A stretch of DNA of 64,000 nucleotides from an uncultured Acidimicrobiia bacterium (lineage in GTDB: Bacteria; Actinomycetota; Acidimicrobiia; Acidimicrobiales; SZUA-35): NCBI GenBank assembly GCA_965530755.1, contig CBESNA010000007.1:45205-109204 (forward strand). Reading direction: 5' to 3'. Numbering within the stretch: position 1 is the first letter of the stretch; every line of letters begins with the position of its first letter. Made by a program: the position numbers and the translations under genes. Under the pieces are notes generated by a model that saw nothing but the letters and a program-made list of their open reading frames with translations, was not told the origin of the DNA and made no database searches. Below, one piece after another: positions 1,426 through 5,615 of this stretch.

Positions 1426-2625
1426 TCAAGGATGCTCGCCGGACCTCGCAGTCTCGAGCGCATCGTCGTCGACCGGGCCGAGAGCGAAGAATCCGGCAAC
1501 ACCGGCAAAGAGCGCGGCTCCGACAACCATTGACGTACCTGTCGTGGTGGCAGCGAAGATTGCGGCGAACACCAGCGGCCCGATGGCCTGACCGAGCCTG
1601 ACCGAGGCCACCCATGCCGCCATGACCGAGGCCCGCTGCGAATCGGGTGTTGCCGAGGTGGCGACGTCCTGCAAGGCAGGAATCATCAGCCCCTCTCCGA
1701 GCCCGTAGAAGACCGACGCCAGAAGCACCATGATGAGCGCAGGAGCGAGGCCGATCGTCAGAGCCGCAACCGAGATCAATCCGCCGCTGACAACGAGCAC
1801 CGTTCGCAGCGAGACCACCTCCCTCACCTTGGCCAGGTTGAAGGCGGCCAGAGTCGACCCGATGGCCGGCGATGACAAGACCAGTCCGCGATCGCGAGCA
1901 CCAAGTCCGAACTCCTGCTCGAGGTGAAGTGGAAGTGCGGTGAGGAACACACCGAAGATCACGACGAAGAGGAAGAACCCGGCCACGACCACGGCCAGAA
2001 TGATCGGCGTTCTGATCACCTCGGCCGCTCCTCGCAGCTGATCACCGAGTGTTCGGGCCTGAGCCGGGCGGCTGGCGGGCAGGACTCTCGCTCCGATGAT
2101 GGCGACCGGGATGCTCACCGATGCCAACCCAAGCGACCAGCGCCAACCGGCCACGTCGGTGATTATCCCCGAGAGCGACGGGATCAGGGCCAGACAGAGC
2201 GTCAGTACGGCGCTGTTGCGGCCGATGAGCTTCGTCCGCTCGATCCCGCTCCAGTGATCGCCGATGAGCACGATGCCCAGGTTGATGAGGCCCGCTCCCC
2301 CGATGCCTTGCACGAATCGGGCGGCCAACAGCAGGTTGAACGTCGGGGCGAGCGAGGCGGCCAATCCGGCGACCCCGAACCACACGAGGCACGGGAGCAG
2401 CACCTTCCGGCGGCCGAGGCGGTCGGCCAGGACGCCGATCACGGGAGCGATGATCACCCCGGGAAGCGGTCCGGACGCGACGAGGATTCCCGCCTTCCCG
2501 TCCGGCTGGCCGAACTCGGCCAGGACATTCGGGATCGCAGGCGTGAGCAGCGTGTTGGCCAGGATTCCCGAGACCGTCACGGCGAAGATGAACCACAACG
2601 GTGGCCGAGCGTTGGTCATTGCCAA
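1426..2625 (-). CDS. MFS transporter
   Basis: 399-aa, highly hydrophobic, about 12 predicted TM segments. Has the MFS loop motif GVLADRLGRRKVL. Confidence 0.85.
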   Translation of the reverse strand: MAMTNARPPLWFIFAVTVSGILANTLLTPAIPNVLAEFGQPDGKAGILVASGPLPGVIIAPVIGVLADRLGRRKVLLPCLVWFGVAGLAASLAPTFNLLLAARFVQGIGGAGLINLGIVLIGDHWSGIERTKLIGRNSAVLTLCLALIPSLSGIITDVAGWRWSLGLASVSIPVAIIGARVLPASRPAQARTLGDQLRGAAEVIRTPIILAVVVAGFFLFVVIFGVFLTALPLHLEQEFGLGARDRGLVLSSPAIGSTLAAFNLAKVREVVSLRTVLVVSGGLISVAALTIGLAPALIMVLLASVFYGLGEGLMIPALQDVATSATPDSQRASVMAAWVASVRLGQAIGPLVFAAIFAATTTGTSMVVGAALFAGVAGFFALGPVDDDALETARSGEHP

Positions 2626-2681
2626 ACCACGCTAGGGCTCGTCCCGGCGGGGCAGCGAGTTGATCCTGGCAGACTCGCTCG

Positions 2682-3149
2682 ATGCTGACTCCCGGACAAC
2701 CGGCACCCACATTCACGCTTCCTGATCAGAACGACCGGCTGGTCGACCTCGCCGACCTGGCCGGAGGCTGGGTGCTGCTCTGGTGGTATCCAAAGGCAGC
2801 AACACCCGGTTGAACGGTCGAAGGACAGGCTCTGCGTGACAGAGCCCAACGATTCGACGAACTCGGCGTCACGATTCTCGGAGCGTCATTCGACACAACG
2901 GCCGAGAATCGTGCCTTCGCCGAGGCGCAGGGCTTTCCGTTCCGCCTGTTGAGCGACCTCGACCACCAGACGGCGGTGGCCTACGGGGTCGCCCGCGACA
3001 CGGACGACAAGTTCGCCCAGTTCCCTCGCCGCTACAGCTTCCTCATCGACCCTGCCGGCCTCATCTGTCGCTCGTACGACGTCACCGACGTGGCTGACCA
3101 CGCCGACATGGTGATCGCCGACGTCGAGCGAGCAGGAGAAAGATCATGA
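2682..3149 (+). CDS. bcp: Bcp/PrxQ-type peroxiredoxin with in-frame TGA (candidate selenocysteine) at the peroxidatic-Cys position
   Basis: The frame is open from ATG 2682 to the stop at 3147-3149 except for one TGA at 2811-2813. Translation: MLTPGQPAPTFTLPDQNDRLVDLADLAGGWVLLWWYPKAATPG[TGA]TVEGQALRDRAQRFDELGVTILGASFDTTAENRAFAEAQGFPFRLLSDLDHQ...RRYSFLIDPAGLI. The TGA replaces the Cys of the PKAxTPGC-T motif. The ORF track lists only the last 66 codons (2949..3149). Confidence 0.7.
2817..2858 (+). other. putative bacterial SECIS-like hairpin downstream of the TGA at 2811
   Basis: GTCGAA (2817-2822) pairs with TTCGAC (2853-2858). An internal loop follows, then GGCTCTG (2828-2834) pairs with CAGAGCC (2840-2846). 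The apical loop is CGTGA (2835-2839). The loop lies about 22-27 nt 3' of the UGA. Confidence 0.5.
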
Positions 3150-3907
3150 CCTCCGCTCCCTACATCGCCACGTCAGAGCGCGTCCCCGCGGATCCGAGCA
3201 ACGATGCCAAGGAGCTCCAGGCTCGGGTCTCGACTGTCACTCGGGGAGCGGCCCGGGCTGCCGTTCTCGGTGTGAACGACGGTCTGGTCACCAACGTCTG
3301 CTTGATCCTGACCGTCGCCGGTGCGAGCTCGACCGTAGGAGATGTCCGCCTCGCCGGTCTGGCGAGTCTGATCGCCGGTGCCTTCTCCATGGCCGCCGGC
3401 GAATGGATCTCCGTTCGCAGTCAGGTCGAGCTGTTCGACGGGATCGTCGGAGAGCTGAACCTGCTTGCTCGACGGAACCCACGTCTACTCCTCGACGAGC
3501 TGACCTCTAAACTCGAGGACTCCGGGCTGGCCACCGACACGGCCCAACGGGTCGCGACCGAACTCCCGCTCGAGGGCGATCGCTTCATCGACTTCACGGC
3601 CCGGACCGTGTTCGGATTCGATCCAGGCGAAGTGGGATCACCGATCGTGGCAGCCCTGTCATCGTTCTTCCTGTTCACCGCAGGAGCAATCGTTCCCCTC
3701 GCCCCGTGGTTCATCACAAGCGGCACGAGGGCAATCATCATCTCGGTCGCGGCGACGGCGATCGCCAGCCTCATCGTGGGCGGGTGGGTCAGTCGATCAT
3801 CCGGACGTCCGGCTTCGCATGGCGCGTTGCGTCAGCTGGCGATCGTCCTTGCCGCTTCCGTCGTGACCTACGGAATCGGTTCACTGTTCGGCACGGCGAT
3901 CGCCTGA
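3146..3907 (+). CDS. VIT1/CCC1-family (Fe/Mn) transporter
   Basis: 253-aa ORF with the characteristic LGVNDGLVTNVCLILTVAGA motif and C-terminal TM helices. Its ATG overlaps the bcp stop (ATGA). Confidence 0.85.
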   Translation: MTSAPYIATSERVPADPSNDAKELQARVSTVTRGAARAAVLGVNDGLVTNVCLILTVAGASSTVGDVRLAGLASLIAGAFSMAAGEWISVRSQVELFDGIVGELNLLARRNPRLLLDELTSKLEDSGLATDTAQRVATELPLEGDRFIDFTARTVFGFDPGEVGSPIVAALSSFFLFTAGAIVPLAPWFITSGTRAIIISVAATAIASLIVGGWVSRSSGRPASHGALRQLAIVLAASVVTYGIGSLFGTAIA

Positions 3908-3989: not shown

Positions 3990-5615
3990 ATGGACATCGA
4001 GTTCTCCCCTCCTGGGCCTGGTCACTGGGCGCTCGACCGTTCGCACTACCCGGGCGGAACCACGCCGATCAGCCAATGGCTGATATCCGAGTCGATGTCC
4101 GCCGGAATGGAGCGCGTGTTCGCAGAGATCGGCGCGCCGGTGAAGGCGGTCGACGCCCGTTTCGTCAATGGCTTCATGTACACCCGGGTACGACCGTTGA
4201 TCGGCGCCGACAAACCGGCGAAACGACTGCCGCCGACGCTCATTCTCAAGATCGCAACGCGTTTGCATCCGGAGTTCCGGCGTCGGGCCAAGCAGGCCAC
4301 GATCACACTCAATGACCGACCCCACCTCGCCGTTGCCAAGCGGTGGGACGCCGAGATCCGACCCCGGCTCACAGCGGAGAATCGTGGGTTCCAGCATGTG
4401 GAACTGACCACGCTCGACGATCCCCAGTTGCAGCAGCACATCACCGAACTCTTGGCCCACCTCCGCCAGAACTACGAGCTGCACTTCTGGCTCCACGGCC
4501 ACGACATCGGTCCCATCGCCCGCCTTCTCTACGAGTGCATCGGGTGGGGCATCGAGCCGGACACGGCGATCCACGCCCTCGCCGGCGCCTCGCCCTCGAC
4601 GTCACGTCCCGCTGAGGCGCTTCGCCGGATCAAGACCATCGTGGAAGCCTCATCGAGCGAACCAAGAACACTCGACGATGTTCGGGCCGTCTCGAACGAG
4701 GCGGCCGGACTCCTCGACGCGTATCTCGAGGACCACGGCGAAGTGCTCGCGACCGGCTACGACATCACGGCACTCCGCCTGGTCGAGATGCCAGGTGTCA
4801 TCCTGAGCAGTATCCGGTCGGCCAGCGAGACCGAGGAGATAGATCACGAGGCCATCGCTGCCGACCTCCGCGCATCGGTGCCCGCCGACCAACGCCCGAT
4901 GTTCGATCAAGTTCTCGGGGACGCCAGAGCCGTGATGGACATGCGGGACGACAACGGACCGCTGACCGTCGAATGGCCCCTTGGCCTCCTGCGACGCGCA
5001 ATGCTCGAGGCGGGAACCCGCCTCGCCGATCGTCACCTCGTGACAGACCTCGACCACGTGTTCGAAGTGACCCACGAGGAAGCGAGATCGCTGCTCGTGG
5101 GTGGTCTCCCTGCAGCATCGGAGTTGGCTGAACGCGCTGAACTCCGCACCCGACGTGCGGCGCTCACTCCGCCGGCTTCGCTTGGACCCGTCGAGCCCGA
5201 GCCCCCGCTCGATGTCCTTCCCGATCCGCTGCCGAAACTGGTCGCCATGGTGCAACTGTCGATGACTCATCTCGGCATGGACGGCGCGATCGACGATTCG
5301 CTCGACGGAGTTGGCATCGGCACGGAGATCTACACGGGCCGAGCCCGCACCGCCGCATCGGCTGAGGAGGCGATCGAACGAATGGAGCCAGGCGACGTGT
5401 TGGTCGTTCGCGCAACATCTCCGGCGTTCAATGCCGTCCTGATGATCGCCGGTGCCATCGTGACAGCCGACGGCGGCGCAATGTCTCACGCCGCCGTACT
5501 GGCACGCGAGTTGGGTGTGCCGGCAATCGTTGGTGCCGGCGGAGCGCTCAGCATCGTCGACGGCAGCACCGTCGAAGTCGACCCGACCGCAGGAACGGTG
5601 CGAGTGATCGGCTGA
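3990..5615 (+). CDS. PEP-utilising-enzyme mobile-domain protein
   Basis: 541-aa ORF. The C-terminus (GDVLVVRATSPAFNAVLMIAGAIVTADGGAMSHAAVLARELGVPAIVG) is the swivelling phosphohistidine domain of PEP-utilising enzymes. The N-terminal region is of unknown function. Confidence 0.75.
   Translation: MDIEFSPPGPGHWALDRSHYPGGTTPISQWLISESMSAGMERVFAEIGAPVKAVDARFVNGFMYTRVRPLIGADKPAKRLPPTLILKIATRLHPEFRRRAKQATITLNDRPHLAVAKRWDAEIRPRLTAENRGFQHVELTTLDDPQLQQHITELLAHLRQNYELHFWLHGHDIGPIARLLYECIGWGIEPDTAIHALAGASPSTSRPAEALRRIKTIVEASSSEPRTLDDVRAVSNEAAGLLDAYLEDHGEVLATGYDITALRLVEMPGVILSSIRSASETEEIDHEAIAADLRASVPADQRPMFDQVLGDARAVMDMRDDNGPLTVEWPLGLLRRAMLEAGTRLADRHLVTDLDHVFEVTHEEARSLLVGGLPAASELAERAELRTRRAALTPPASLGPVEPEPPLDVLPDPLPKLVAMVQLSMTHLGMDGAIDDSLDGVGIGTEIYTGRARTAASAEEAIERMEPGDVLVVRATSPAFNAVLMIAGAIVTADGGAMSHAAVLARELGVPAIVGAGGALSIVDGSTVEVDPTAGTVRVIG

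Follow-up and report, generated by a model that had tools for sequence, protein, structure and literature searches.

Peroxiredoxins (Prx; PF00578, TxxU) are an established family of bacterial selenoproteins (surveys by Zhang & Gladyshev; 2026 review, PMC13188914), in which selenocysteine (Sec) was first shown for Eubacterium acidaminophilum (Sohling, 2001, via PMC13188914). Sec-Prx had 12 members in a 2006 genome survey, and other counts are 253 genes in the GOS metagenome (PMC2398784) and 78 organisms in 2016 (PMC5029168). The present analysis concerns a 64-kb stretch of DNA from an uncultured Acidimicrobiia bacterium (contig CBESNA010000007.1; the whole stretch is referred to as the window), in which positions 2682–3149 carry a PrxQ/Bcp-type peroxiredoxin gene with an in-frame UGA at the peroxidatic codon and a hairpin shortly downstream. 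An earlier examination of the letters without database searches (the sequence-only reading) had proposed a Sec-containing peroxiredoxin with a bacterial hairpin resembling a selenocysteine insertion sequence (SECIS), and had added that the family itself was not new. The published surveys agree on the second point, and the first is supported here by a conserved TGA, selection on the gene, covariation in the hairpin and Cys-type controls; judged by sequence comparison, the locus is a genuine Sec-encoding PrxQ/Bcp gene with a probability that we put at about 0.92. The evidence consists of the gene anatomy and family membership, a UGA kept across relatives, purifying selection on either side of it, and a hairpin that is conserved, covaries and goes with the TGA; SelB binding, selenium incorporation, the reductant and a functional link to the neighbouring VIT1 gene are what we infer.

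The locus resembles the described Sec-Prx family in its AhpC-TSA domain, in the Sec at the peroxidatic site of a PxxxTxxU motif, in having far more numerous Cys homologues, and in a stem-loop right past the UGA whose small apical loop contains a G. The surveys, however, pool all Prx subfamilies, and a description of the specific Acidimicrobiia PrxQ/Bcp clade, its CGUG loop and its VIT1 linkage was not confirmed there. The gene thereby adds a member to a known selenoprotein family, in a lineage already documented as selenoprotein-rich, and conceptually little is new, Sec-peroxiredoxins having been known since 2001; the news may be incremental, comprising at least 95 Sec forms, the CGUG loop, the lack of a resolving Cys, VIT1 linkage, apparent repeated Sec/Cys switching and systematic misannotation. 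The thioredoxin-dependent PrxU of E. acidaminophilum, the experimentally established precedent, is likewise a Sec peroxiredoxin, but it belongs to another Prx subfamily, is longer (~230 aa, against ~155 aa for the window protein) and comes from a strict anaerobe of the Firmicutes, whereas the window comes from Actinomycetota (class Acidimicrobiia). Its model, NF040737, scored 49.6 bits against a cut-off of 270, so the window protein is not a PrxU orthologue. PrxQ/BCP of Xanthomonas campestris shares the YPKxxTPG(C/U)T active site and the same catalytic Arg, but is an atypical 2-Cys Prx with resolving Cys84, where the window protein has Ala80 along with a peroxidatic Sec. In Escherichia coli fdhF, the SECIS is a SelB-binding hairpin in the coding sequence with a GU-containing apical loop ~20–25 nt from the UGA. 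Set against this geometry, the window hairpin also lies within the coding sequence shortly past the UGA and has a GU-containing apical loop, but it is without sequence similarity to the fdhF element, its CGUGA loop stands ~3 nt further from the UGA than G23/U24 of fdhF, and its binding by SelB is predicted.

Reading frame and active site of the gene

The start codon, the TGA at 2811–2813 and the terminal TGA at 3147–3149 share one frame, of which the TGA at 2811–2813 is the sole interruption, and read-through would give a 155-residue product with Sec as residue 44 (Table 1). A mechanical list of open reading frames (ORFs) gives just 2949–3149 (66 aa, TTG start) for this locus. The sequence-only reading had described a frame open from ATG 2682 apart from one TGA, a full-length Bcp on read-through, and an ORF track confined to the last 66 codons, all of which was confirmed by translation and by the ORF list; its count of 112 codons after the TGA is correct if the stop is included, there being 111 sense codons plus the stop. 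Genome-wide reassignment of TGA was also considered and was ruled out since TGA is the main stop codon, terminating 18 of the window's 25 long ORFs of coding-like character, as well as 58 of 81 Sec-bcp genes (the window and the 80 relatives described below).

When searched against Pfam with Cys substituted at the TGA codon, the protein matched AhpC-TSA (PF00578, E = 2.1e-32) and Redoxin (PF08534, E = 4.2e-17), with residues 4–135 covered. The best solved relatives were X. campestris PrxQ/BCP structures (PDB 5iiz, 3gkk and others; E = 3e-21 over 143 residues), and the top 13 PDB matches were all BCP/PrxQ entries rather than AhpC/Prx1, Tpx or Prx5. The earlier placement of the TGA on the peroxidatic Cys of the Bcp motif was borne out by this alignment, in which it falls on Cys48 of the Xanthomonas YPKDSTPGC with Pro37, Thr41 and Arg117 also in place; P37, T41, U44 and R117 are each at least 90% conserved among 79 orthologues. 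The best NCBIfam match was PRK09437 thiol peroxidase at 117 bits, below its 140-bit equivalog cut-off, which supports membership of the PrxQ/BCP subfamily but not equivalence to E. coli Bcp. The product of 2682–3149 is a PrxQ/Bcp-subfamily peroxiredoxin, for which peroxidase function is predicted.

A resolving Cys was not found in the window protein, where the +5 position is Gln and the equivalent of Xanthomonas Cys84 is Ala80, and the enzyme is consequently grouped with the 1-Cys-type PrxQ enzymes; a resolving Cys is not obligatory in PrxQ, and 1-Cys PrxQ enzymes exist. Fifty-three of the 79 orthologues have no Cys at all, and the single Cys of the window protein, Cys129, is unique to it among them. 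At the column of residue 63 (codon 2868–2870), which is not a classical resolving-Cys position, 23 of the 79 Sec forms and many Cys forms (e.g., AADCTIVG) have Cys, and the window has Val. One relative (L044) has a Cys at +5 from the Sec (U-TIQG-C), the resolving position of the E. coli Bcp type.

Table 1. Features of the peroxiredoxin locus, in window coordinates.
Feature	Position	Strand	Basis
Complete PrxQ/Bcp-type peroxiredoxin coding sequence, 155 residues, one UGA (Sec44)	2682..3149	+	Translation, Pfam, PDB relatives, start-codon conservation
Active-site motif P37-x3-T41-x2-U44 (PKAATPG-UGA)	2790..2813	+	Alignment to YPKDSTPGC of Xanthomonas PrxQ
In-frame UGA, predicted selenocysteine codon	2811..2813	+	TGA in relatives, TGC/TGT in Cys-type homologues
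Predicted SECIS core: 7-bp stem GGCUCUG/CAGAGCC, apical loop CGUGA 2835–2839	2828..2846	+	Conservation, folding, covariation
Extended hairpin with lower stem GUCGAA/UUCGAC	2817..2858	+	Minimum-free-energy structure; lower stem in window and close relatives, not conserved throughout the family
Conserved catalytic Arg117 codon	3030..3032	+	Alignment with the Xanthomonas PrxQ catalytic Arg; conservation of at least 90% in 79 Sec forms
VIT1-family transporter gene, start overlapping the peroxiredoxin stop (ATGA)	3146..3907	+	Pfam VIT1, E = 1e-49
Putative -10-like hexamer CAGACT, 6 nt before ATG	2670..2675	+	Position and similar hexamer in relatives

Conservation of the UGA and of the downstream hairpin

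To compare the locus with its relatives, one genome per GTDB species was scanned, and 80 Sec loci were obtained with protein identities of 53–90%, nearly all of them labelled as metagenome-assembled genomes (MAGs) of Acidimicrobiia, Acidimicrobiales or Ilumatobacteraceae; the window brings these to 81 sequences, and 14 metagenome relatives extend the Sec set to 95. One contig labelled 'uncultured Burkholderiales bacterium' (CAZCVW010000015.1) carries an Acidimicrobiia-type Sec-bcp at 64% identity, which points to mis-binning of the contig or mislabelling of the MAG. The peroxidatic codon is TGA in all 80 genome loci, each from a different species, and in the 14 further metagenome loci, and its context, WWYPKA(A/S)TPG*T (the asterisk being the TGA), is kept in 80/80 relatives. 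In a protein search, matches above ~65% identity (70–87%) were all fragments of 92–112 aa that start after the TGA, and the full-length Cys-containing relatives were at most 64% identical to the window protein. The frames are intact on both sides of the TGA in 79 of the 81 sequences, and a start codon lies exactly 43 codons upstream of the TGA in 78 (ATG in 68, GTG in 10) of the 80 loci whose sequence extends that far. Nei-Gojobori counts over the 79 intact orthologues gave ratios of nonsynonymous to synonymous diversity (pN/pS) of 0.38 upstream of the TGA, 0.45 in the 16 hairpin codons and 0.48 in the rest of the gene, which places both halves under purifying selection; synonymous diversity (pS) was 0.64, 0.52 and 0.61, respectively, and the minimum at the hairpin codons points to additional constraint on synonymous sites there.

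These data bear directly on the explanation that the TGA arose by nonsense mutation, or by miscalling of TGC or TGT, in a decaying or mis-assembled Bcp gene. Gene callers do shorten the gene, the window shows no Sec machinery, and two sequences demonstrate that errors and losses occur, one with GGA at the catalytic codon and one nanopore MAG with a frameshift in the hairpin. A UGA conserved with selection on both halves, however, cannot be explained by nonsense mutation or base-calling error: it recurs in 80/80 species-level genomes and 14 metagenome contigs from independent assemblies, with both-side intact frames in 79, pN/pS of ~0.4–0.5, and a linked hairpin that is conserved and covarying. 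The comparative data effectively refute this explanation, to which we would assign almost no probability, and the earlier argument against a decaying pseudogene is upheld by the same selection and intact frames.

The two aberrant sequences are as follows. In L114, a 705-bp metagenome contig (database protein P0010), GGA (Gly) replaces the catalytic TGA at ~306–308 while the downstream hairpin, GGCGCTG-CGTGA-CAGCGCC, is intact, which would be explained by an error in the reads or assembly, or else by inactivation in the very recent past. In L038, the closest relative, on a 1.35-Mb long-read nanopore MAG contig, a one-base insertion in the hairpin (~3131–3190; GGCGTCTG versus GGCTCTG) shifts the reading frame of the orthologue, and is most likely an assembly indel rather than the mark of a pseudogene.

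A second alternative is true termination at the UGA, which would yield a peptide of 43 residues, with internal initiation producing a C-terminal fragment of ~66–110 residues separately, in which case the hairpin would have some other role such as pausing or mRNA stability. GTG, ATG or TTG starts are indeed called shortly past the TGA in many relatives, but these internal 'starts' vary in position among relatives (products of 93, 105, 108 and 110 aa). Moreover, the TGA separates the P-x3-T-x2-[U] motif from the catalytic Arg117, both of which are conserved, the 43 upstream codons are those under the strongest purifying selection (pN/pS 0.38), and the Cys-type homologues are single full-length proteins, all of which makes termination exceedingly unlikely compared with read-through of the UGA.

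Folding of positions 2805–2870 gave a minimum free energy (MFE) of -24.2 kcal/mol with a lower stem at 2817–2822/2853–2858 and an upper stem at 2828–2834/2840–2846, which reproduces the stems and the CGUGA loop of the two-tier hairpin first described 3′ of the TGA. The upper stem begins 14 nt past the UGA and the loop lies 22–26 nt past it, with G2836 and U2837 inside an invariant CGUG: C25, G26, U27 and G28 of the loop do not vary across the 80 aligned sequences, which were compared from the TGA to +54. The loop is supplied by the Arg+8 codon, which is CGT in 92/95 Sec forms despite fourfold degeneracy at the third position. Among the 80 sequences there are 45 different stem-loop variants, every one of which folds to a 6–7-bp stem under the CGUG loop, and at least 10 stem sequences occur, e.g., GGCUCUG/CAGAGCC, GGCCCUG/CAGGGCC, GGCGUUG/CAACGCC, GGCACUG/CAGUGCC and GGGACUC/GAGUCCC. 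When a fixed single structure was imposed on the 80 sequences, 81% of cells were paired in the upper helix and 75% in the whole structure, the latter falling to 26–50% once the 3′ partners were slid; the lower helix had merely 69% paired cells and is thus outside the conserved core, which consists of the upper stem and loop only.

Covariation was counted per subgroup, beginning with the 37 species that have the window's register. Columns 21–33, the wobble bases of Ala+6 and Arg/Ser+10, are paired in 34 of the 37 against 17.6 expected (p<1e-4 in a permutation test that ignores phylogeny) and use six pair types (C-G 17, G-C 6, G-U 5, U-G 3, A-U 2, U-A 1); the next pair, columns 22–32, is kept in 37/37. 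All 12 members of a group with a 7-nt loop have C-G, G-C or A-U as the equivalent pair. Searches of the window for further elements of this kind returned little: a loop-core pattern search gave matches at chance level only, and both a GC3-based scan for other TGA-interrupted genes, which missed the bcp TGA itself, and a TGA-plus-hairpin scan gave only off-frame Arg/Pro-rich artefacts.

Cys-type homologues and the selenocysteine trait

Cys-type homologues served as the control for the hairpin. Four were obtained by exact-protein look-up, and more sequences of both kinds by a metagenome scan seeded with a Cys form, so that the final comparison set holds 95 Sec and 12 genuine Cys forms; a 13th 'Cys' match (L023) was off-frame noise. 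VIT1 lies directly downstream with an overlapping stop in three of the four look-up Cys forms, a shared gene order that identifies the three as positional orthologues. The peroxidatic codon is TGA in the Sec forms and TGC or TGT in the Cys forms; Arg+8 is CGT in 92/95 versus 0/12; codon +10 is mostly AGR, AGY or CGA versus mostly CGN or CAC; and the mean local folding energy is -10.8 versus -4.5 kcal/mol (Mann-Whitney p = 2e-8, with the spurious L023 row still within the Cys set). The SECIS hairpin was not found in any of the 12 Cys-type homologues. The four look-up Cys forms have much the same peptide after the active site (TVEGQ(A/E)LRDR or TIEGQGLRD), and most of the others diverge after codon +4; since Cys forms with so similar a peptide lack the hairpin, its presence goes with the TGA state rather than with the peptide, as expected of a SECIS. 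Among the checks proposed with the sequence-only reading were an alignment of homologues at this codon and a search for compensatory changes in the hairpin: the first yielded TGA in 80/80 and 14 further relatives and TGC/TGT in the 12 Cys types, the second yielded covariation at wobble positions, and TGA homologues with decayed frames and no hairpin were not seen, the hairpin being kept and 79 frames being intact.

In a neighbour-joining tree of 154 proteins, Sec and Cys clades interleave, with roughly 15 pure clades each. This is a crude distance tree of a 155-aa protein, without support values and of low resolution, and it suggests repeated Sec/Cys interconversion inside one orthologous, syntenic family, for which the ~95 Sec and 12 Cys forms constitute a clean natural experiment.

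Several results weigh against a Sec-encoding gene. Taken as a single sequence, the window hairpin is unremarkable (z = -1.56 relative to dinucleotide shuffles, -0.47 relative to synonymous recodings), and across the relatives the synonymous-recoding MFE had a mean z of -0.64, with only 14% of sequences under -1.64; GC-rich coding sequence folds in any case, which leaves such single-sequence statistics too weak, and it is solely the comparison with relatives that gives the hairpin its significance. When covariation was counted in a fixed register over the 80 sequences, no excess over column shuffles was seen (106/500), and RNAalifold fails on the full 80-sequence alignment, both because subgroups shift register through a bulged C or a 7-nt loop; the subgroup test, for its part, takes no account of phylogeny. 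Rfam gave no match at the gathering threshold in the window, nor at E up to 10 in 2600–3200, as would be expected given that bacterial SECIS elements are poorly represented there (bioRxiv 10.64898/2026.04.03.716425). No tRNA-Sec was found by tRNA scans of the 64-kb window, which has no tRNA at all, or of 60 related loci, and tblastn did not find selA, selB or selD in the window and related loci (~0.5 Mb) with E. coli SelA, SelB and SelD as homology probes only.

The same data leave room for a different inserted residue, because they prove recoding and a SelB-type hairpin rather than the identity of the amino acid, and Sec machinery was seen neither in the window nor in the sequence flanking the related loci. 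The UGA might be read as Cys by a SelB-dependent Sec-like tRNA charged with cysteine, of the 'tRNA-ReC' type, or as Trp by near-cognate read-through. With a catalytic Trp the enzyme would be inactive, whereas selection on the gene is purifying; cultured representatives of the family and class carry the full SelA/SelB/SelD set and many selenoproteins; and Sec at the Prx peroxidatic site is an established case (PMC13188914). Recoding to a residue other than Sec is accordingly regarded as improbable.

The lineage itself is well documented: Ilumatobacter coccineus, I. nonamiensis and Ca. Microthrix parvicella are SelD+, SelA+ and SelB+ (Peng et al., PMC5029168, Table S1), with 15, 10 and 7 selenoproteins, respectively (PMC5029168, Table S2), all three exceeding the six set there as the threshold for 'selenoprotein-rich', and Acidimicrobium ferrooxidans is negative for the trait (PMC5029168). 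In the sister order Actinomarinales, selA, selB, selC and selD are present in 84/84 complete genomes (bioRxiv 10.64898/2026.04.03.716425). The Sec trait is common in Actinobacteria and a Sec-Bcp is not unusual for this lineage, and the earlier expectation that one would be unusual in such a high-GC genome finds no support in the gene sets and selenoprotein counts of I. coccineus and I. nonamiensis. According to the GOS survey, ten reads from closely related marine organisms carried Prx and SelW-like selenoprotein genes side by side (PMC2398784); marine Acidimicrobiia loci are also present in our set (L063–L070).

Proposed function, gene neighbourhood and database records

By analogy with established bacterial Sec decoding and Prx chemistry, on which the steps of Sec insertion, catalysis and recycling rest, a ribosome arriving at the UGA would meet the hairpin 14 nt downstream, which as a bacterial SECIS would recruit SelB-GTP-Sec-tRNASec and place Sec at residue 44. 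Sec44, in the P-x3-T-x2-U site opposite Arg117, would attack peroxides and be converted to a selenenic acid. Because most family members are without any Cys, the enzyme is most likely a '1-Sec' peroxidase, whose selenenic acid would be recycled directly by an external thiol reductant of thioredoxin or mycoredoxin type. The enzyme, with its predicted antioxidant role, is widespread in soil, freshwater and marine Acidimicrobiia.

In 43/81 Sec loci the next gene downstream is VIT1, 39 of them having an overlapping ATGA or GTGA; in the window, no terminator was found between the two genes. The overlap, together with the Pfam match, agrees with the coupling of the stop to a VIT transporter gene proposed earlier, and the VIT1 gene is a probable operon partner. 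The overlap would bring about co-expression with this VIT1-family metal transporter and suggests, as a hypothesis, a combined peroxide and iron (Fenton) defence unit. That the locus unites a true '1-Sec' PrxQ without resolving Cys, a dedicated VIT1 anti-Fenton module and a lineage-specific CGUG SECIS signature is a tentative proposition and, in all its parts together, a rather doubtful one; if true, the CGUG-loop signature could be used to enumerate large, mostly unannotated Acidimicrobiia selenoproteomes. The hairpin set itself defines a SECIS consensus able to seed a covariance model for Acidimicrobiia.

Upstream of the gene, a strict scan for E. coli-type consensus promoters gave no match before ATG 2682. 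A -10-like hexamer (CAGACT, CAGAAT or CACACT, often after TGG) stands 6–7 nt before the start in the window and eight relatives (L038, L001, L002, L008, L009, L010, L013 and L027), a spacing that suggests a leaderless mRNA, and L003–L007 and L011 instead have TAGACT, TACACT or TAGAAT ~30–45 nt upstream. An inverted repeat, GCGAGT...ACTCGC, upstream of the ATG was considered as an operator and rejected, as it is unconserved in relatives. A divergent MFS transporter gene (1426–2625, - strand) starts just 56 nt from the bcp ATG, and a gene downstream of VIT1 (3990–5615, + strand) codes for a PEP-utilising mobile domain protein; neither neighbour showed an obvious functional connection with selenium.

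Public databases split Sec-bcp into truncated products of ~92–112 aa, and the NCBI-sourced ones were unnamed in a cluster look-up. The prediction that gene callers would split or flag the gene is matched by these truncated records and by others, from some short contigs, that are mistranslated with Trp. The practical value of the locus lies in annotation, the catalytic residue and the selenium dependence of the enzyme being invisible in such records. Two database proteins, P0073 and P0066 (L115, 51–515, and L116, 83–547), appear 'full-length' with Trp at the catalytic position, where the source pipeline rendered as Trp a TGA codon that is a stop under translation table 11, an artefact of annotation by which the Sec site is masked.

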